Assembly (NCBI GenBank): GCA_039586795.1
Contig: JBDHJS010000022.1
Coordinates: forward strand, 1 to 54,325
Length of the DNA stretch: 54,325 bases
From: Gemmatimonadota bacterium
GTDB taxonomy: Bacteria > Gemmatimonadota > Gemmatimonadetes > Palauibacterales > KS3-K002
Direction of reading: 5' to 3'
Shown here: positions 32,933 to 45,806 of the stretch, piece by piece
How positions within the stretch are numbered: the stretch's first letter is position 1
Layout: the number at the start of each line of letters is the position of its first letter
Notes under the pieces: generated by a model
Told to the model about the DNA's origin: nothing
The model's input: the letters and a program-made list of their open reading frames with translations, nothing else
Database searches by the model: none
Position numbers and translations under genes: made by a program

Positions 32933-33010
32933 ACATGATAGGGTGGATGATCACACGCCGGATTACCTGATCCTCTACCTGACTCTTACATGATAACCGT
33001 TTCGCAATTT
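32933..33010 (+). promoter_or_regulatory. Five-box direct-repeat promoter P1
   Basis: Boxes CATGA 32934, GATGA 32946, CCTGA 32966, CCTGA 32978, CATGA 32989 (spacing 12/20/12/11); weak -10-like CAATTT at 33005, 16 nt after the last box start. Confidence 0.7.
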
Positions 33011-33124: not shown

Positions 33125-33319
33125 ATGAACGCTAACGAGAGAGTGACAGTTGCTGCGATCTATCAGTCAGATCTCGATCGTCATCTGTTCGCGCCCTCGT
33201 TAAGGCCGATCAGGACTCGCCGGCGTAATCACGATCCGCTGGCCGATCGCGTGCGCGACTGGTTCATGGCGGGCTGGGCCCGTTGGAAAGAGCTGGCAGA
33301 GGCTGCGTCGTTCAGCTAA
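33125..33319 (+). CDS. 64-aa hypothetical microprotein downstream of P1
   Basis: GGAGGAG RBS before ATG; Trp-rich amphipathic C-terminus DWFMAGWARWKEL; short hairpin after the stop. Confidence 0.65.
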   Translation: MNANERVTVAAIYQSDLDRHLFAPSLRPIRTRRRNHDPLADRVRDWFMAGWARWKELAEAASFS

Positions 33320-33456: not shown

Positions 33457-35898
33457 GTGCGACCGACCGAGATTATCACCTTGGGACGAACCGCCGTCCT
33501 GCATGACGGTGTCGAGCTCCCCTCCCTTTCCTCACAGCGACGGCAACTCGCGCTGCTGGTCTTCCTCGCCGTTGAAGGGCCTGTGAGTCGCGGGCGCCTG
33601 ATTTCGACCTTCTGGCCCGACCGGGATGCGGAAAAGGCTCGTCATTCCCTAGCTCAAGCCCTGTACGCGTTGCGTCAGGAGCTGGGCGAGCGATCGGTGA
33701 TCCAGGAAGGCGACGTCCTGTCTGTCGGCCCTGAGATATCGATCGACGCGGCGGCGATGAGGAATGCCATTATCGCTGAAGACTGGCAGCGTGTCGTCGA
33801 GTTCTATGATGGGCCGTTCCTCGCAGGGTTTTCGTTGTCGGGGTCGCCCGAATTCGAGGAGTGGGCCGCGGGTCATCGGGCGCGATATGCCTCTGACGCG
33901 CGTCGGGCTTTTCGCCAGGCGATCGCGCGCTACAGATCGTCCGGCGACACGAAGGCTGCGGCGGCGCTGGCGAGCCGCTGGAGCGATATCGAGCCCTCGG
34001 GTGCGGCGGACGAACCGGAAGCCGAGCCCGAGATCCCCGAGGCGGTCCCCGTCGGATGGAACGCCGTAATCGACAGCCTCAAGACCCGTCACTATTTCAG
34101 GATCCTCCTCCTCTATCTCGGGGCCGCCTGGCTGGCCGTGCAGTTCTTCGACATCCTGGTCGATCGTAACGTCCTGGCGCCAGGTTTCTTCCCTCTTGTC
34201 CTGTACATCGTTGGGCTCGGCTTCCCCGTTGCGCTGCTTCTCGCCTGGCTGTTCGAGCGAAAGGCCCAACGGGCACAGGGAGCGACAGCTCCGCTGCGAA
34301 TCAAGGCGGCGGAGATCGGTTACGCTATCGGCGCCGTAGCGCTTATCGCGCTGATCCTCGTCTCGGTACTCGATCGCCTTCGCCCACAAGATGAGCGGGA
34401 TGTATTCCCGGCAACGCGCATCGCCGTGCTCTACTTCGACGATCACAGCGACGGCGACACGCTCTCCTATCTGGCCGAGGCGCTCACCGAGCATCTGACT
34501 CACGAGCTGGCTCAGATCTCCGCTCTCGACGTGCTCCCGCGTAACGCCGTAAAGCCGTACCGAGAGACGGGAACGCCAAGCGACGTGATCGCTGGCGAAC
34601 TCGGCGTCGGCACGCTGGTCGAAGGCAGCGTGCTGGGTTTCGCGGACAGCGTGCGGATCAGCGTCCAGCTCATCGACGCTCGGAACATGAGTCACCTGAC
34701 CAGCGCCGTGATCGCTGGCGCCGGCGGCGATCCCTTCGCGCTGCTCGACGACGTCGGTTCAGAGATCGCTCGGCTGCTCCGTACGGAGCTTGGGATGGAG
34801 ATCCAGCTCCGCGAATGGCGAGCCGGCACGGAGAGCACGGCGGCTTGGGAGAGAGTCAAGCGGGCCAACGCGATCCTCGCCGACTACGAGCCGCTGGTGA
34901 TGAGCGGCGATACGGCAGCGGCCGGGAGGACGCTGGATCTGGCGGACACGCTGTTGGCTCGCGCCGAGGCGGCGGACCCGAATTGGCCCGAGCCGATCGT
35001 CCAGCGCGGTTGGATCGCCGCTTCGCGGGCGGCACTCTTCTCAACGCCGGCCGAAGACAATCAATCGCACTGGTTTCAGGTGGGCATCGAACACGCCGAG
35101 CGGGCGCTGGCGATCGATTCAGAAAACGCCCGGGCGTTGGAACTCCGGGGCATCCTCCGCTCTCGGATCGCGCTCGAGGCGGAATCCGAGGGCGAGTCCA
35201 ACCGCTTGCTGACGGAAGCTGAAGACGACCTACGCAGGGCAACCGATCTGAACATCGGGCTGGCCCGCGCCTGGAGTCGACTCAGTCGTATCCAGGCAGA
35301 CCGCGGCCAATTCGCCGAGGCCAAGCTCGCCGCGCAACGCGCGTTCGAAGCGGACGCCTTCCTCCGAGACGCTCCGGTCGTGCTCGCTCGACTTTGCGAA
35401 ATGTCGCTCCAACTCCAAGACTGGAACGAGGTCACTCGCTGGTGCGAGCTGGGCAGACAGCGTTTCCCAGATGACGAGTTCTTCGCGGCGGTAGAGCTAT
35501 CGGCGCTGGCCGGACCCGTTGGCCCCGAACCCGACGTGGACTTGGCTTGGGACCTTGTCGAACAGACGCTCCGGCTCAGCCCGCCCGGCGACCGTGACGA
35601 CTACCTTCCGGCCCTTCACATGCAGGCGGCGGCGGTGATCGCCCGCGCCGGGCTGGCCGACAGTGCCGTGGCGGTTATCGATGGGGCCCGGGCCGCCGAT
35701 CCTCGCGACGACCCGGAATTGGACTACCAGGAGGCTAACGCGCGCTTGATCATGGGGGACGTCGATGAAGCGCTTCGCCTACTCGCGGAGTTCCTCGAGG
35801 CGGAACCCGAGTATGCTCAATTCCTGGAAAGCGACTGGTGGTTCGATCGACTGCACGACGATCCCCGCTTCCTGACTCTGGTCGACGGGCCGAACTAG
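33457..35898 (+). CDS. Membrane-anchored SARP/BTAD-type regulator 1 (wHTH, shortened BTAD, 3 TM, TolB-N-like domain, TPR)
   Basis: ALLVFLAVEG..SR..L...FWPDRD.EKARHSLAQALYALR; YDGPFLAGF...EFEEW; TM module; IAVLYFDD; TPR-like C-terminus. Confidence 0.85.
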   Translation: MRPTEIITLGRTAVLHDGVELPSLSSQRRQLALLVFLAVEGPVSRGRLISTFWPDRDAEKARHSLAQALYALRQELGERSVIQEGDVLSVGPEISIDAAAMRNAIIAEDWQRVVEFYDGPFLAGFSLSGSPEFEEWAAGHRARYASDARRAFRQAIARYRSSGDTKAAAALASRWSDIEPSGAADEPEAEPEIPEAVPVGWNAVIDSLKTRHYFRILLLYLGAAWLAVQFFDILVDRNVLAPGFFPLVLYIVGLGFPVALLLAWLFERKAQRAQGATAPLRIKAAEIGYAIGAVALIALILVSVLDRLRPQDERDVFPATRIAVLYFDDHSDGDTLSYLAEALTEHLTHELAQISALDVLPRNAVKPYRETGTPSDVIAGELGVGTLVEGSVLGFADSVRISVQLIDARNMSHLTSAVIAGAGGDPFALLDDVGSEIARLLRTELGMEIQLREWRAGTESTAAWERVKRANAILADYEPLVMSGDTAAAGRTLDLADTLLARAEAADPNWPEPIVQRGWIAASRAALFSTPAEDNQSHWFQVGIEHAERALAIDSENARALELRGILRSRIALEAESEGESNRLLTEAEDDLRRATDLNIGLARAWSRLSRIQADRGQFAEAKLAAQRAFEADAFLRDAPVVLARLCEMSLQLQDWNEVTRWCELGRQRFPDDEFFAAVELSALAGPVGPEPDVDLAWDLVEQTLRLSPPGDRDDYLPALHMQAAAVIARAGLADSAVAVIDGARAADPRDDPELDYQEANARLIMGDVDEALRLLAEFLEAEPEYAQFLESDWWFDRLHDDPRFLTLVDGPN

Positions 35899-40739: not shown

Positions 40740-42131
40740 CTACTGCCGCGCCCGATCCGGCTCGCTAGGTAGGTCCTGCACCAGCTCGGCGACCAGGCGC
40801 TCGATCAGATCGAACATTCCGTCACGCGGACCGCGGGCGTCGGCACGCGCCAGCTCGGCGCCCGTCTGCGCATCCACCAACTCGGCGACGAGTCGGATCT
40901 CATCGCCGCTGCGATGGATATCGCCGACCACGAACGCGCTGGCACCCAGGTCGCCGGCCAGCGCACGCATCGCTGCGGCGTCCTGCATCGCCGAGGCCGC
41001 ATCCTGTCCCTCCAGCGCCTGGAGGACCTGCAGGTGACCGACCGTTGTGATCGAGGCTTCGCCTTCCAGATCAACGGACAGTAGCTGTGCCACACCCTCC
41101 GGGAGACCCTCGGAGTCGGCGCCGACGCCGTGTGGCTGGAATGGCATGACCGCCACCCGCATGCCCAGGGTCGGGACCGTGGACCTTGCGGCGAGATTCG
41201 CATCCTCCGCCGGTCCGCTGGTCGGCCACTGCCAGATCGCCACCATCGTCACGACCACCAGAGCGACCGCCGCCACTACCCAACCGCGCTTGCTCAACCC
41301 GAGGCTCGGAGCCGCCGATTCGGCTTCCACCTTTGCCGGCGCCGTCTGCTCGACCTGGGGCTGTGGCTCCCGCTCGACCTCGTTCTCATCCGGCTCTAGT
41401 TCCGGCTCGCTCACCTGAGCGCCCGGGCTCGGCTCGGCCCGGATCCGCGCGACCAGCTCTCGGGTGTGCTCCAGCGGCTCGACCTCCAGCTCGTTCTCCA
41501 GCAGCACCCGGTACACGTCATACTGCCGCAGCGCCGCCAACCGATCGCCCTTCAGGTAGAGGCACTCGATAAGCAGGTGCTGGGCCTCGTCGTCCAGCGA
41601 ATCCGCCTCGATCAGGCGCCGACAGTAGCCCACCGCCGCGTCGTGATCGGCCGCCGCCCTGGCATCCATCGCCATCTTGAGCGCCGCTTTCCTGAACTCG
41701 CGTCGCAGGCCGGCACGCTGCCGGTCCGCCCAGTGATCGAACTCAGGCTCCCCGAACGCCAGGTCGATCAGGAACGGCCCCGAGTACATCTCAACGGCGC
41801 CCTTGAGGTCGCCCGACTGGATTCGCGCCTCGAATTCCTCCACATCCAGCCACACGTCGCGGCCGAAATCGACCGCGTCCTCGACGCTCTCCAGATCGAG
41901 CTGCGGAGTGACCTTCCGGAGGGTGTACAGCAGCTGGTTCAGCGCCCGGCGCGCCCGCTTCTCGTCCCGATCCGGCCACAGCACGCCGAGGATCTCCTCG
42001 CGCCGGTCCGGACCCGGCTCCCGAGCCATATACACAATCAACGCGATGGACCGGGGCCAGGCGGCCTCGCCCGTTAGCGTCTCCCCGTCGACGGTAATCG
42101 ACGTCCGCCCTAGTGTCCGAATCTCTATCAT
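40740..42131 (-). CDS. Membrane-anchored SARP/BTAD-type regulator 3 (wHTH, BTAD, 1 TM, TolB-N/FlgO-like domain, no TPR)
   Basis: MIEIRTLGRTSI..., LWPDRDEKRARRALNQLLYTLR, YSGPFL, LDDEAQHLLI...GDRLAALRQY...ELEVEP; one TM; VAVMPF domain. Confidence 0.88.
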   Translation of the reverse strand: MIEIRTLGRTSITVDGETLTGEAAWPRSIALIVYMAREPGPDRREEILGVLWPDRDEKRARRALNQLLYTLRKVTPQLDLESVEDAVDFGRDVWLDVEEFEARIQSGDLKGAVEMYSGPFLIDLAFGEPEFDHWADRQRAGLRREFRKAALKMAMDARAAADHDAAVGYCRRLIEADSLDDEAQHLLIECLYLKGDRLAALRQYDVYRVLLENELEVEPLEHTRELVARIRAEPSPGAQVSEPELEPDENEVEREPQPQVEQTAPAKVEAESAAPSLGLSKRGWVVAAVALVVVTMVAIWQWPTSGPAEDANLAARSTVPTLGMRVAVMPFQPHGVGADSEGLPEGVAQLLSVDLEGEASITTVGHLQVLQALEGQDAASAMQDAAAMRALAGDLGASAFVVGDIHRSGDEIRLVAELVDAQTGAELARADARGPRDGMFDLIERLVAELVQDLPSEPDRARQ

Positions 42132-42210
42132 TACAGGGTCCTGGTGGGGTCTCGGGTTGCCCGCCCCCTGCAAATTGTCGTTCTGGGCGGTAATCGACAA
42201 GACGGCAGGC

Positions 42211-42347
42211 TTGGGGTGGACGGTAACCGGTGGTAGACGGTGGACGGTGGACTGTAGACAGTGGAACGCTGGTCAGTAAGTCCGGATACGCCACTCAACC
42301 GTCCACCGTCTAGCGTCCACCTACCGTCCACCTACCGTCCACCCCAA
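42211..42347. repeat. 137-bp palindromic element with 15-bp terminal inverted repeats and internal heptamers (MITE/REP-like)
   Basis: TTGGGGTGGACGGTA ... TACCGTCCACCCCAA; internal GACGGTG/CACCGTC-type units. Confidence 0.75.
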
Positions 42348-42425
42348 CATGACCGCCCACATGACACCTCCCCCAGCCCGCCTGATAGCCACCTGACCGC
42401 CCGCATGATCGGCCTGTCCTATTAT
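42347..42425 (+). promoter_or_regulatory. Five-box direct-repeat promoter P3
   Basis: CATGA 42348, CATGA 42360, CCTGA 42381, CCTGA 42392, CATGA 42404 (12/21/11/12); TATTAT at 42420, 16 nt after the last box start. Confidence 0.8.
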
Positions 42426-42428
42426 GGA

Positions 42429-42670
42429 ACGTCCGGTTGGGCAGCCGATTCGGACGTGAGGATTCAAGACGAAGTCTCTTAGGAAGTACGTAGTCGTAGT
42501 TGGCTTGAGACAGCAGTTTTCCCTCACTGGAGGCTTGTCCGCACGCTCGCCCTTCCGGGTCCCCGGTCGCTTTGGGGACTTCCTCCTCTGCCCATTTTGC
42601 ACCCGCAAGGATGCGGCGAGTCGGGCGGACGAGCCTCCAAACCCCCACCCTGGGCTTCAGGGCTCAGGCA
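42429..42670 (+). ncRNA. Candidate structured ncRNA 1 (unknown family; ends approximate)
   Basis: Follows P3; hairpin ACGTCCG/CGGACGT; domain closed by GTGAGG/CCTCAC; stem GGAGGCTTGTCCGC/GCGGACGAGCCTCC (42529-42638) enclosing GTCCCC/GGGGAC and a GCAA-tetraloop hairpin. U-G wobble and GNRA loop favour the + strand; no credible ORF. Confidence 0.5.
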
Positions 42671-42751
42671 GAAGTTGGTGAGGAGTTAGGATTGAAAGGG
42701 AAAAGTAGGGAATACGACAGCAAAGCCCGGCCAGAATGCCCGAGTCTCCTT

Positions 42752-42830
42752 ACATGATAGGGTACATGATAGGGTACGCCCGCAGCATGATCGCCACATG
42801 ACCGACTACATGATAGCCCCACCCTATGTT
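42752..42830 (+). promoter_or_regulatory. Five-box direct-repeat promoter P4
   Basis: CATGA at 42753, 42765, 42786, 42797, 42809 (12/21/11/12, identical to P3 with a 405-nt offset); TATGTT at 42825, 16 nt after the last box start. Confidence 0.8.
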
Positions 42831-42836
42831 TCCCCT

Positions 42837-42991
42837 CGACTTGACCCTGGAGTGAGCCCTTAGGGCTCGGAATCTTCCGGAGGCTCGTTCAGGAGTTCTG
42901 CTTCCAAAAGTCTGTTTAAAGACTACCTCAGCTGTCCCACCTGCCCGCTGTGGAAGCAAACGGAACTCGAGAACGAGCCTCCGTTCTTTTT
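42837..42991 (+). ncRNA. Candidate structured ncRNA 2 (related to ncRNA 1; ends approximate)
   Basis: Follows P4; GAGCCC/GGGCTC hairpin; stem CGGAGGCTCGTTC/GAACGAGCCTCCG (42878-42983) with inner GAGTTC/GAACTC and TGCTTCCA/TGGAAGCA helices; followed by TTCTTTTT. Confidence 0.5.
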
Positions 42992-42999
42992 GAACCTCA

Positions 43000-43038
43000 C
43001 CCCCCACTCCCTACCCCCTACCCCTTACCCGCTACCGC
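43000..43038. repeat. Degenerate CCCTACC heptamer tandem repeat
   Basis: cccccactccctaccccctaccccttacccgctaccgc next to the M14 gene stop. Confidence 0.6.
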
Positions 43039-43040
43039 TT

Positions 43041-45806
43041 TCACCGCACCGTCGGCCCGAAGATAATCCCATTCAAGAACAGCCTATCCAAAGACGGCCA
43101 AAGCAGCCTAAACGTCGGGTCGTCCGCAAACATGATCACCCGGCCCCCGCCGATCGGCTCATCGATCATCCAGGCCGTATCCTTCAGGAACTTCACCGTG
43201 TTGTCGGACCAGATGTGGCCGGTGATGTGCAGGTTGTCGCCGACGAAGGCGACGGGGTTGGCGCCCTCTTTCGACGGATGGTAGAAATCGCTGCCTGAAA
43301 CGAGGACCGGCAGCACATCGGTCTCGTAGCCGAACGTCATGGGGCTGGTCAAATCGAGGGAGGCCCGCATGATCGCGCCCGGGACGCGGATCGGCTCATC
43401 CTCGCCGCCAGCCGTCATCACGCCGCCGGCGTACGCCGCCTGCGGCAACCCGACATCGCGACTGCCGCCGTCTTCGCCGTCATCTTCTTCTGCTCCAACA
43501 CGGCGCGCGCTTGTGAACTCCGCATCGACGAAGTAGCCGGCCGCGTTGCCCAGCGCGATCACCACGCCGCCGCCCTGGATCCATTCCTTCAGCCGCTCGC
43601 CGTTGCCGAAGGCTCGACGATAGCCCCAACCGGACGGCAGCACGATCACGTTGAAGTCATCGAGCGAGTTGGCCAGGGTCTCCAAACGCACCGGCGTGTA
43701 GGGCACAGCGTATTCTCGGTCCAACGTGTACCAGGTGGCGCCGAACGCCGTCGCGCTGACACCATCGCCAGCGGCCAGGGCGACCTTCGGCCGTTCGAGG
43801 GTCACCACCGGATTGGACCCGATCCCTGTCGGCCCCTCCTCGTAGTAGCCGGTGTGCACCGCATCGACCGGGACGCCGAACTTCCGGGCGAGGACGTCGA
43901 TGCGATCGTGAAGGGTGTCCGGGTTTCGATTCACACGGAGCAGCAGCGTGCCTCGCGCGTACGTCGCACCTCCAGCCCGCATCTGCTGCGTCGCGGCGAC
44001 AACCTTGAAGCCTTCCTTGAACAGGGCAAAGGCGAGCCGCGCCGATGCGTTGCGATCGTAGCGGAAGACGTAAGCCGTGTTCGCCCGACCGCCCCGCACT
44101 CCGCCGTCGACTCCGCCGCGGAGCGCTTCAGGCAGCGATCCCATGTCACGGGCGCCCAGGTAGGCCGGCGGCCGCCATGCTTCGTCGCGCTCGTTGAATT
44201 CGACTTCAAGCGGTTGGGCAGCGACACGACCGGCGCTCTCCAACCAGTAGGCCTCGACGCCATATGAAAGAGGGAGACTCCACGCCGTGACATCGTAGAA
44301 CTGTGGCCATTCCTTCGGCACCTTAGCGCCGCGCAGCGCGTTCCGCGCTCGCCGCTGGTTCTGGAGCTCCAGGAATTCGGGCTCCAGACCCGCTTCCGGC
44401 GCCATCTTCGATTCGAGCAGGCGCGCCTGAGGCTGCGCCATGTCGATGATGTAGCTGCCCGCCGGGAACTCACGGCGCGACGAGGCTCCGTTGACGTAGT
44501 CGTGAGCGTTGCCGGAGCTGAACGACTCGGTGGCGACGCTCACCTCGATGTCATCACGAAGCAGGATCTCCGCCAGCTGCGCCGCCCGCTCGGGGTCCGT
44601 GCCCGGCACGACGACGAAGCGCTTCCACGCCTTCGACGCCGCGAATTCGTTCATCCCGGAACGGAAGAAATCGTAGTAGTCGTTGAGCGCGGCCTCTCGG
44701 TTCTCACCCAACGTGCTCAGCGTGGCCAGCGATGCCGTGAAGTGTTTGGCGATTCCGTCCGTGAACGTGAGCACCGTGCCGTCGTCACGGACCCAGGCGT
44801 AGCCACGGTAACCGCCGCCATCCGTCTCGTAGGTCATCCCGATGGCGCCGTTCAGCGCTGGCCAGCTGTCCCAGTAACCCGGGTAGTGAAGATCGAAGAC
44901 ATCGCGGACGAAGTAGTTCCAGCTGTAGCGATCGAACGCCGCGCCGTTGGCCCGCCCATACATGTCCGTCCAGCGTTGCACCCAGTCGCTAGGCAGGCTG
45001 GGGTTGAGTGGCAGAACCGGCGGCGGCATGAAGTACTGGGTCGTCTGACCGTGATGGTCGACAAAGACTTGCGGGCTCCAGTCGTGATGCGCCTGCACGA
45101 TCGCCTTCGTCTCGCGCTGACTCAGGTTCAGCGCATCCCGGTTCATGTCAATCTGGTAGTGGTTGTTGTTGGTGCTCATGCCCCAGGGCGCCGAGTGCTC
45201 GAGTGCCGCATGCGCCGAGTCGCCTACCGCGAACGCGTTGTACCACTCCACGTGCCGCTCGCGGCTCTCCGGGTTGTGGGAGGGGTTGATGACCGAGATG
45301 ACGTTCTCGAGGATCGCCAGCGTATAGGCGTCTTCGCCGGCCGCCAGTTGATAGGCTACCTGCATCGCCGTCTCACCCGCTGCCGTCTCGTTGCCGTCAT
45401 TGCCGTAGTTCATCCAGCCGATGGGCGGCGTCGTCCGCGCGATCTCCGCCGCTTGTGCGGCGCTGGTGGCACGCGGGTCCCGCAGGCTACGGACGGCCGC
45501 ACGGATCTCATCCAGTCGCGCCATGTTCTCCGGCGAACTGATGATCACGAGCCTGAGCGTTCGACCTTCCACCGACTTCCCGTAGTCCACGATCCGGACA
45601 CGGTCGGGCGCCGCCGCGGCAATCGCCTCCAGGACCCGCTCCAAGTTCCCGTGGTTCGTGTGGAACTCACCCGGCTCGTAGCCGAGGATCGAGGACGGTC
45701 GCGGCACGTTCTCCCGGTAGGGGCCGTGCTCGTAGAACGAGAACTCCTGGGCGCGAGCGATCGCCGGCGCCAACAGCATGACGAGAACCAGGCTGAGTCT
45801 TCGCAT
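43041..45806 (-). CDS. Secreted M14-family zinc carboxypeptidase-like protein with atypical metal motif
   Basis: Signal peptide, YGKSVEGR.L, NDGNE in place of the usual HGNE, DMNRD, MTYET; C-terminal GATase-like domain. Confidence 0.85.
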   Translation of the reverse strand: MRRLSLVLVMLLAPAIARAQEFSFYEHGPYRENVPRPSSILGYEPGEFHTNHGNLERVLEAIAAAAPDRVRIVDYGKSVEGRTLRLVIISSPENMARLDEIRAAVRSLRDPRATSAAQAAEIARTTPPIGWMNYGNDGNETAAGETAMQVAYQLAAGEDAYTLAILENVISVINPSHNPESRERHVEWYNAFAVGDSAHAALEHSAPWGMSTNNNHYQIDMNRDALNLSQRETKAIVQAHHDWSPQVFVDHHGQTTQYFMPPPVLPLNPSLPSDWVQRWTDMYGRANGAAFDRYSWNYFVRDVFDLHYPGYWDSWPALNGAIGMTYETDGGGYRGYAWVRDDGTVLTFTDGIAKHFTASLATLSTLGENREAALNDYYDFFRSGMNEFAASKAWKRFVVVPGTDPERAAQLAEILLRDDIEVSVATESFSSGNAHDYVNGASSRREFPAGSYIIDMAQPQARLLESKMAPEAGLEPEFLELQNQRRARNALRGAKVPKEWPQFYDVTAWSLPLSYGVEAYWLESAGRVAAQPLEVEFNERDEAWRPPAYLGARDMGSLPEALRGGVDGGVRGGRANTAYVFRYDRNASARLAFALFKEGFKVVAATQQMRAGGATYARGTLLLRVNRNPDTLHDRIDVLARKFGVPVDAVHTGYYEEGPTGIGSNPVVTLERPKVALAAGDGVSATAFGATWYTLDREYAVPYTPVRLETLANSLDDFNVIVLPSGWGYRRAFGNGERLKEWIQGGGVVIALGNAAGYFVDAEFTSARRVGAEEDDGEDGGSRDVGLPQAAYAGGVMTAGGEDEPIRVPGAIMRASLDLTSPMTFGYETDVLPVLVSGSDFYHPSKEGANPVAFVGDNLHITGHIWSDNTVKFLKDTAWMIDEPIGGGRVIMFADDPTFRLLWPSLDRLFLNGIIFGPTVR

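Follow-up and report, generated by a model that had tools for sequence, protein, structure and literature searches.

Tandem structured RNA genes with predicted SARP-type promoters beside a putative membrane-anchored regulator in a family of Gemmatimonadota

SARP activators are the switches of antibiotic gene clusters in actinomycetes, and in enterobacteria two adjacent paralogous small RNAs (sRNAs), OmrA and OmrB, are both activated by a winged helix-turn-helix (wHTH) regulator, OmpR. At the SARP promoters of Streptomyces, as described in the portion of the AfsR work used here (PMC10936776), repeats lie 11 or 22 bp apart, the 3' repeat is separated from the -10 element by 8 bp, and AfsR substitutes for the -35 contact. 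The cuckoo/CcsR RNAs of Alphaproteobacteria, as far as the excerpted account covers them (PMC8034643), are structured sRNAs that carry C-rich anti-Shine-Dalgarno motifs and occur as tandem paralogues. A locus with likenesses to all three systems is described here from a Gemmatimonadota bacterium (assembly GCA_039586795.1, contig JBDHJS010000022.1, nt 1 – 54,325; this whole stretch of 54,325 nt is the window). It is a 909-bp spacer (nt 42132 – 43040) flanked by a regulator gene (nt 40740 – 42131, minus strand) and an M14 carboxypeptidase gene (nt 43041 – 45806, minus strand), and it very probably holds two paralogous, plus-strand non-coding RNA (ncRNA) genes, units 1 and 2, that are expressed and activator-dependent.

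Both cassettes set out in a preliminary description of this DNA are confirmed. It had placed two promoters 405 nt apart in a gap of about 900 bp, each with five boxes; the arrays do lie 405 nt apart, and five boxes of the form CMTGAY were located in each. Those of array 1 (nt 42348 – 42409, plus strand) start at nt 42348, 42360, 42381, 42392 and 42404, those of array 2 (nt 42753 – 42814, plus strand) at nt 42753, 42765, 42786, 42797 and 42809, and the start-to-start steps are 12, 21, 11 and 12 bp in both. The predicted -10 element of unit 1, TATTAT (nt 42420 – 42425, plus strand), has its first base 16 nt 3' of that of the last box and would set the transcription start near nt 42432; that of unit 2, TATGTT (nt 42825 – 42830, plus strand), would set it near nt 42838. 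The 5' hairpin and branched domain that had been proposed for each unit were recovered by folding. Unit 1 (minimum extent nt 42432 – 42772, plus strand) comprises a 5' hairpin (nt 42430 – 42456), a second hairpin (nt 42456 – 42527), a branched domain (nt 42529 – 42638) with exposed strand CUUCCUCCUCUGCCCA, and a purine-rich 3' extension. Unit 2 (predicted extent nt 42838 – 42991, plus strand) has a conserved leader, a 5' hairpin (nt 42854 – 42868) and a branched domain of 104 nt (nt 42879 – 42982), and the U-run said to end it is found directly 3' of the folded unit (GUUCUUUUU, nt 42984 – 42991, plus strand).

The closing stems (P1) are 12 bp long in both units, pairing nt 42529 – 42540 with nt 42627 – 42638 in unit 1 and nt 42879 – 42890 with nt 42971 – 42982 in unit 2. 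They differ, as had been noticed, by changes that preserve pairing (U-G versus C-G at pair 8, C-G versus U-A at pair 11), and the closing-stem pattern is found in just these two stem pairs in the whole 4.68-Mb genome. Fold z-scores are -5.19 for unit 1 and -5.40 for unit 2, with none of 200 shuffles of either being equally stable. The interiors had been described as common in order, and both folds give that order: P1, an inner helix P2, a short hairpin P3, an unpaired C/U-rich strand with a small hairpin P4, and the return strands.

The RNA of unit 2 is a new RNA family, and it is restricted to one family of Gemmatimonadota. In a BLAST search of the spacer against 41 relatives, 20 of the 24 that belong to the same family proved to have the unit 2 domain. 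A covariance model, R1, was built from 19 unit 2-type sequences; unit 2 scores 109.9 bits against it (E 9e-23), with the P1-P2-P3-P4 architecture and the invariant strand described below. Matches to R1 occur in 24 of 31 genomes of the family, the window's own genome counted, and in 0 of 114 of the sister family of the same order, where stricter filters were used. The conserved strand itself (nt 42924 – 42953, plus strand), which is C-rich and includes the P4 stem CAGC/GCUG with its 14-nt loop, is invariant at 28 of its 30 columns in all 19 sequences, drawn from 10 genera (g1 – g4, g6, g8 – g11), the other two columns being at least 90% conserved. Among about 185,000 species genomes, 23 stretches contain an exact 22-mer of this strand, and every one is labelled as belonging to Gemmatimonadota or Gemmatimonadales metagenome-assembled genomes (MAGs). 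The family had not been recognised in the preliminary description, and Rfam has no counterpart for it: the Rfam 15 scan of the whole window at gathering score gave no match, and at E values up to 10 the only match in nt 42300 – 43040 was sX5 (E 3.7, 14.3 bits against a gathering score of 50). Bacterial signal recognition particle (4.5S) RNA, raised as a candidate for its size and closing stem, was rejected, as no model of it matched at E up to 10.

Unit 2 has a conserved, covarying structure. After 21 metagenomic copies had been added, the set used for covariation held 45 sequences, 36 of them distinct. Among these 36, standard pairs fill 97.7% of pair cells, against 37 – 52% when partners are slid by 1 – 3 columns; both members of the pair have changed in 14 of the 29 pairs, and any of five measures was reached by 0 of 500 shuffles. 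The genome-only set (23 distinct sequences) gives 12 of 29 pairs changed on both sides and 97.3% paired. The homologue search that had been proposed for these units has in this way returned a covarying family, with support for P1, P2a, P2b and P3; P4 is invariant and hence beyond covariation. Pairs of the G-U type are frequent (for example, 16 UG at pair 10/127 and 13 UG at pair 34/98), and most homologues have a GC-rich hairpin and T-run 3' of P1, both of which mark the plus strand as the RNA strand.

These data also bear on the suggestion that the element is not an RNA gene at all and is instead a repeat of the repetitive extragenic palindrome (REP) or miniature inverted-repeat transposable element (MITE) class, a protein-binding site at the DNA level, or a short coding gene. 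The closing stems are palindromic as DNA, and R1 still gives 26.5 bits to the reverse strand of unit 2, as such a reading would have it. Against this, BLAST and the stem pattern find just two local copies in the genome, so the REP/MITE candidate named in the preliminary description was rejected; the frequent G-U pairs would be A-C mismatches on the opposite strand; helix lengths vary among homologues by insertions and deletions; and the RNA-library contigs discussed below are confined to the spacer. The view that the cassettes hold no credible open reading frame (ORF) also stands, as no frame is open in all 24 homologues and the best one runs through the RNA in only 15 of the 24, on which ground a conserved ORF was rejected. 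A reading without an RNA gene is therefore disfavoured and very hard to credit.

Unit 1 appears to be a distant paralogue of unit 2, with the architecture in common and a different exposed strand. It scores 25.9 bits against R1 (E 7e-4), a score that derives from its stems, since the reverse strand of unit 2 scores the same. Its conserved strand (TCCTCNGCCCAT...GCACCCG) was found in 4 of 31 genomes of the family (G000, G002, G043 and G010). When these four copies are aligned the architecture is kept, with 8 of 40 predicted pairs compensated; P3 is missing from the G002 copy. In G043, contig C361 carries the complete tandem (array 1, unit 1, spacer, array 2) along with a regulator 86% identical to the one described here, and we infer that its source is a close relative belonging to this genus and that binning placed it in a genome that is 4% contaminated. 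About 130 nt after P1 of unit 1 are conserved in C361, and not in G002 or G010. This 3' extension (nt 42640 – 42772) is rich in purines (GAGGAG, AGGA and GGGAAAAG runs), so that pairing to either unit's C-rich strand is conceivable, although in the minimum-energy fold it is not paired with these strands. A 21-codon frame in the tail was rejected as a gene: it shows 1 synonymous against about 8 non-synonymous changes relative to C361, and lacks conservation in G002. The earlier idea of two paralogous, regulated ncRNAs transcribed divergently from the regulator is supported by these results, refined to distant paralogues with promoters of a SARP-like type.

OmrA and OmrB offer a parallel for this arrangement, as they too are tandem paralogous sRNA genes in one spacer, have activator-dependent promoters of their own, and share their ends while their interiors have diverged. 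There is no likeness to the Omr RNAs in sequence or structure, and the Omr seeds are 5'-terminal whereas the conserved strand here lies within a three-way junction.

Six public sequencing runs that share words with the spacer are RNA on record, and contigs of four of them were aligned to it; parts of the stretch without contig cover are no sign of silence. Two soil metatranscriptomes from one study gave whole contigs matching nt 42451 – 42764 (0 mismatches) and nt 42444 – 42772 (1 mismatch), and a marine-sediment metatranscriptome from another study gave one matching nt 42445 – 42691 (0 mismatches). All three begin 12 – 19 nt 3' of the start predicted for unit 1. The fourth run, X17, gave two 151-nt contigs over nt 42680 – 42957, and one soil run holds a 254-nt contig of a relative's type-2 RNA. 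Plus-strand transcripts had been called for as evidence: contigs from RNA libraries do cover unit 1, and they carry no strand information. The case for unit 1 being an abundant RNA of at least 329 nt, well above the 150 – 250 nt looked for at first, is good but not conclusive; that for transcription across unit 2 is weak.

The RNA-linked promoters have the features of SARP-type activator sites, with a constant geometry of boxes and -10 element. When 26 RNA-linked arrays (24 type-2 loci, the second copy of G010, and unit 1) are aligned on the last box, the box consensus reads C-[C/A]-T-G-A-[T/C], with C, T, G and A present in all 26. Positions +16 to +21 read TAnn[T/A]T, T16, A17 and T21 being found in 26 of 26, and a purine is most frequent near +29/+30. 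The 127 inter-box steps measure 11 bp (85), 12 bp (12), 20 bp (14) or 21 bp (16), and so agree with the SARP spacing of 11 or 22 bp; the -10 element follows the heptamer by 8 – 9 bp, by register, in all 26 arrays, in agreement with the SARP distance of 8 bp. A -35 hexamer is absent from the RNA-linked promoters. A simple sigma-70 and terminator scan of nt 42100 – 43100 detected neither unit's promoter nor a terminator at P1, a result of little weight, as a miss is expected for promoters without a -35 element and for a stem loop longer than 8 nt. Arrays of at least four phased boxes number 12 in this genome and 0 in the reversed genome, and triple boxes mark 23 of the 30 genomes searched from the family but just 1 of 60 from its sister family, the reversed pattern being found in 0 of 91 genomes. 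The likeness to AfsR at afsS, within the part of that account used here (PMC10936776), comprises direct repeats one or two helical turns apart, a 3' repeat at a fixed short distance from the -10 element, and the lack of a usable -35. The present arrays differ in having 5 – 8 boxes rather than 2 – 3 repeats, boxes of the CMTGAY type, ncRNAs as putative targets, and a host in the phylum Gemmatimonadota.

Eight more arrays of 4 – 5 phased CATGAY boxes lie outside the window (C68:92148, C37:4340, C24:38101, C84:4974, C55:76257, C54:5263, C34:6855 and C22:32504). Some of them precede a glycerol-kinase-like ORF or a DtxR-like ORF, and most have no -10 at +16. Within the window, the stretch between the regulator start and array 1 (nt 42211 – 42347) contains inverted arrays of small repeats (GGTGGACGGT / ACCGTCCACC units) with arms of up to 27 nt, of which the outermost 15-nt arms are 100% complementary and the right-hand copies are 11 bp apart. 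These inverted arrays are absent from the homologous locus on C361.

The regulator gene encodes a protein of 463 aa in which an N-terminal SARP-like module (wHTH and BTAD) is followed by a single predicted membrane helix and, at the C-terminus, a TolB_N-like domain. Pfam places BTAD at residues 99 – 231 (E 6.7e-15) and TolB_N at residues 324 – 426 (E 9e-4, sub-threshold). Because a single hydrophobic stretch (about residues 283 – 302, read off the translation) separates the two halves, the protein may have a ToxR-like topology, with a cytoplasmic DNA-binding half and an extracytoplasmic sensor half. As with AfsR (PMC10936776, in the part drawn on here), a wHTH and BTAD activator is encoded next to a very small target gene; unlike AfsR, this regulator is predicted to be membrane-anchored and to carry a TolB_N-like outer domain in place of the NOD and TPR domains. 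RNA, boxes and regulator co-occur in the same genomes. Full-length orthologues of the regulator (56 – 86% identity) are present in 26 of 30 family genomes, while the sister family has a relative in 1 of 60 genomes, at 35% identity. The orthologue divergently adjoins the RNA in 17 of 25 loci, and four further loci (G024, G022, G004 and the main G010 copy) have it on the same contig at a distance of 4 – 11 kb. The adjacent regulator likely binds the box arrays. Among the matches listed in full-text literature searching, none described a Gemmatimonadota small RNA and none a SARP-activated sRNA; nor did these listings show a SARP-type promoter before an sRNA gene or, beyond the actinomycetes, a SARP-like regulator with a membrane anchor, both of which would be variants.

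Taken as a whole, the locus is read here as two activator-driven ncRNAs that act in trans by base pairing through an exposed C-rich strand, with a probability of roughly one half. An envelope signal at the outer domain of the regulator would induce the RNAs: the membrane-anchored SARP-like protein, seated on phased boxes along one face of the helix, would recruit RNA polymerase and substitute, like AfsR, for the absent -35 contact. Unit 2 would terminate at its own closing stem and U-run, and transcription of unit 1, which has no evident terminator, would in part continue in the direction of unit 2. As a seed, the unpaired strand (type 1, ACCUCCUC...; type 2, ACCUCAGCUGUCCCACCUGCCC) would then act by pairing with G-rich, Shine-Dalgarno-like sites in mRNAs and blocking ribosome binding. 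In favour of a seed, the C-rich strand is unpaired in both folds. The type 1 strand holds ACCUCCUC, the complement of a GGAGG-type Shine-Dalgarno sequence, and no other 5-mer is as frequent as GGAGG ahead of the crude start calls made for this genome; the 3' end of the 16S rRNA is not assembled in this MAG, so the comparison is with these start-upstream 5-mers.

A 19-nt module of the type 2 strand (CTGTCCCACCTGCCCGCTG) also recurs on a second, unrelated scaffold in genus g4 (L055 – L057, L087, L094, L115, L150), which again speaks for a seed. This scaffold stands directly 3' of the stop codon of a predicted gene for a methyltransferase-like membrane protein, a label taken from the translated C-terminus. 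The scaffold has no box array in its vicinity, and covariation is seen in its closing stem (GGACCGGTCG/CGGCCGGTCC versus GGGCCGGTCG/CGACCGGCCC). Among 53 metagenomic loci with the 19-mer, 22 are unit 2 RNAs, the second scaffold of g4 accounts for 2, and the remaining 29 are unrelated and mostly coding, so that the bare 19-mer is not diagnostic. A further conserved intergenic element, [A/G]TCCCACCTGCCCGCT within a 10-bp hairpin, was observed in L102 and L103 (g8) and L095 (g4), at position 1501. Its opposite strand is a perfect 15-nt complement of the unit 2 module, and in g8 it lies upstream of a gene for a secreted protein; it may be a further paralogue or a target of the module.

Several observations weigh against the base-pairing reading or against steps on which it depends. 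At the promoters, a -10-like hexamer at +16 is found in just 5 of the 12 arrays of this genome. The alignment of regulator residues 6 – 234 to the SARP domain of AfsR (8hvr_I) is a weak match (E 0.0028), a Pfam scan detects no wHTH in the protein, and the genome has 17 BTAD genes, for which reason the regulator is assigned to the boxes by synteny and co-distribution, not by binding. As to expression, the X17 contigs include DNA upstream of the predicted start of unit 2, which means read-through or DNA, and the contigs in general come without strand or true ends from RNA libraries in which carry-over of DNA is possible. A target search in the own genome with 9-mer seeds and duplexfold energies gave no outlier above the GC-rich background: the 956 seed matches are close to chance (about 1,070 by estimate), and the best candidates, in C74 and C46, lie inside probable coding regions. 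Finally, 30 invariant nt far exceed a usual seed and would fit protein binding or a tertiary contact equally well.

The last two points lead to the main rival, in which the RNAs are real and regulated and act by binding protein, the 30-nt strand being the site for a family-specific RNA-binding protein in sequestration or as the scaffold of a ribonucleoprotein (RNP). The near-invariance of this strand over 10 genera, while the stems vary freely, would suit such a site, as would the lack of an outstanding mRNA target and the transfer of the 19-nt module to a different scaffold in g4. A candidate partner is available in the window. A third five-box array (nt 32934 – 32994) would drive a 64-aa ORF (nt 33125 – 33319), about 9 kb upstream of the units, that is Arg/Trp-rich and has the motif DLDRHLFAP...WARWK. 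It is followed by a gene for an 813-aa protein (nt 33457 – 35898), the N-terminus of which resembles the DNA-binding half of the regulator. Relatives of the small ORF stand behind box arrays at C74:1007 of the same genome and directly beside the regulator in g8 and g3 (L168, L169, L171), so that a conserved protein of this kind shares the box promoters with the RNAs. In the part of the CcsR account consulted (PMC8034643) there is a precedent, CcaF1, a small protein acting on co-regulated C-rich sRNAs. On the other hand, the candidate partner has no Pfam match, and the type 1 strand differs from that of type 2, carries a plain anti-Shine-Dalgarno core and fits base pairing. Protein binding as the mode of action is, on balance, unlikely, though well short of remote.

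Common to these RNAs and the cuckoo/CcsR RNAs, in what the excerpted source reports (PMC8034643), are C-rich anti-Shine-Dalgarno motifs on structured, tandem paralogous sRNAs, and co-transcription with a small ORF in some lineages, for which genera g4 and g6 provide the comparison here. The hairpin-loop motif CCUCCUCCC of the cuckoo/CcsR RNAs is absent from the present ones; in type 1 a junction strand carries CCUCCUCUGCCC, and the strand of type 2 is a different one. The cuckoo/CcsR promoters are of the RpoHI/HII type, those described here are box arrays, and the RNAs described here have no Rfam match. In contrast to the CIN1 subgroup, Pfam scans found no DUF1127 among the neighbouring genes or in the 64-aa ORF.

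In g4 and g6 (L032, L037, L039, L046 and other loci of these genera), an ORF of about 35 codons, in which a hydrophobic helix follows a basic N-terminus, separates the box promoter from the type-2 RNA and is situated 100 – 170 nt upstream of the latter. Given its position, the RNA in these genera is the 3' untranslated region (UTR) of a mini-mRNA, which would favour a branched domain that is cis-acting or self-contained, as a 3'-UTR stabiliser or terminator of a small ORF, a self-cleaving ribozyme, or an aptamer. Aptamers and ribozymes, too, typically show covarying stems around a conserved junction, and that pattern is present here. Against a role in cis, the promoter of g1, g3, g8, g9 and g10 is 46 – 85 nt from P1 with no intervening ORF, there is no downstream gene on the same strand, the neighbours being convergent, and no Rfam riboswitch or ribozyme matched at E up to 10. 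Such a role is accordingly improbable.

At the level of sequence the locus defines a module in which a sensor, an operator grammar, two RNA outputs and a small co-regulated protein come together, and which is conserved throughout a family made up of uncultured bacteria from sediment and soil. For annotation it supplies a covariance model, for the regulon a predictive promoter grammar, and beyond these a compact RNA with 30 invariant nt. A more far-reaching view, which must be called doubtful, is that the membrane-anchored SARP-like sensor has the ncRNAs as its main outputs, and that the invariant C-rich module, being present on at least two unrelated scaffolds, is the docking site or active core of a new RNP and not a seed, with the 64-aa protein as a possible partner, or else a new ligand-binding or catalytic fold. 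If true, this would amount to a family-wide signalling circuit without precedent.

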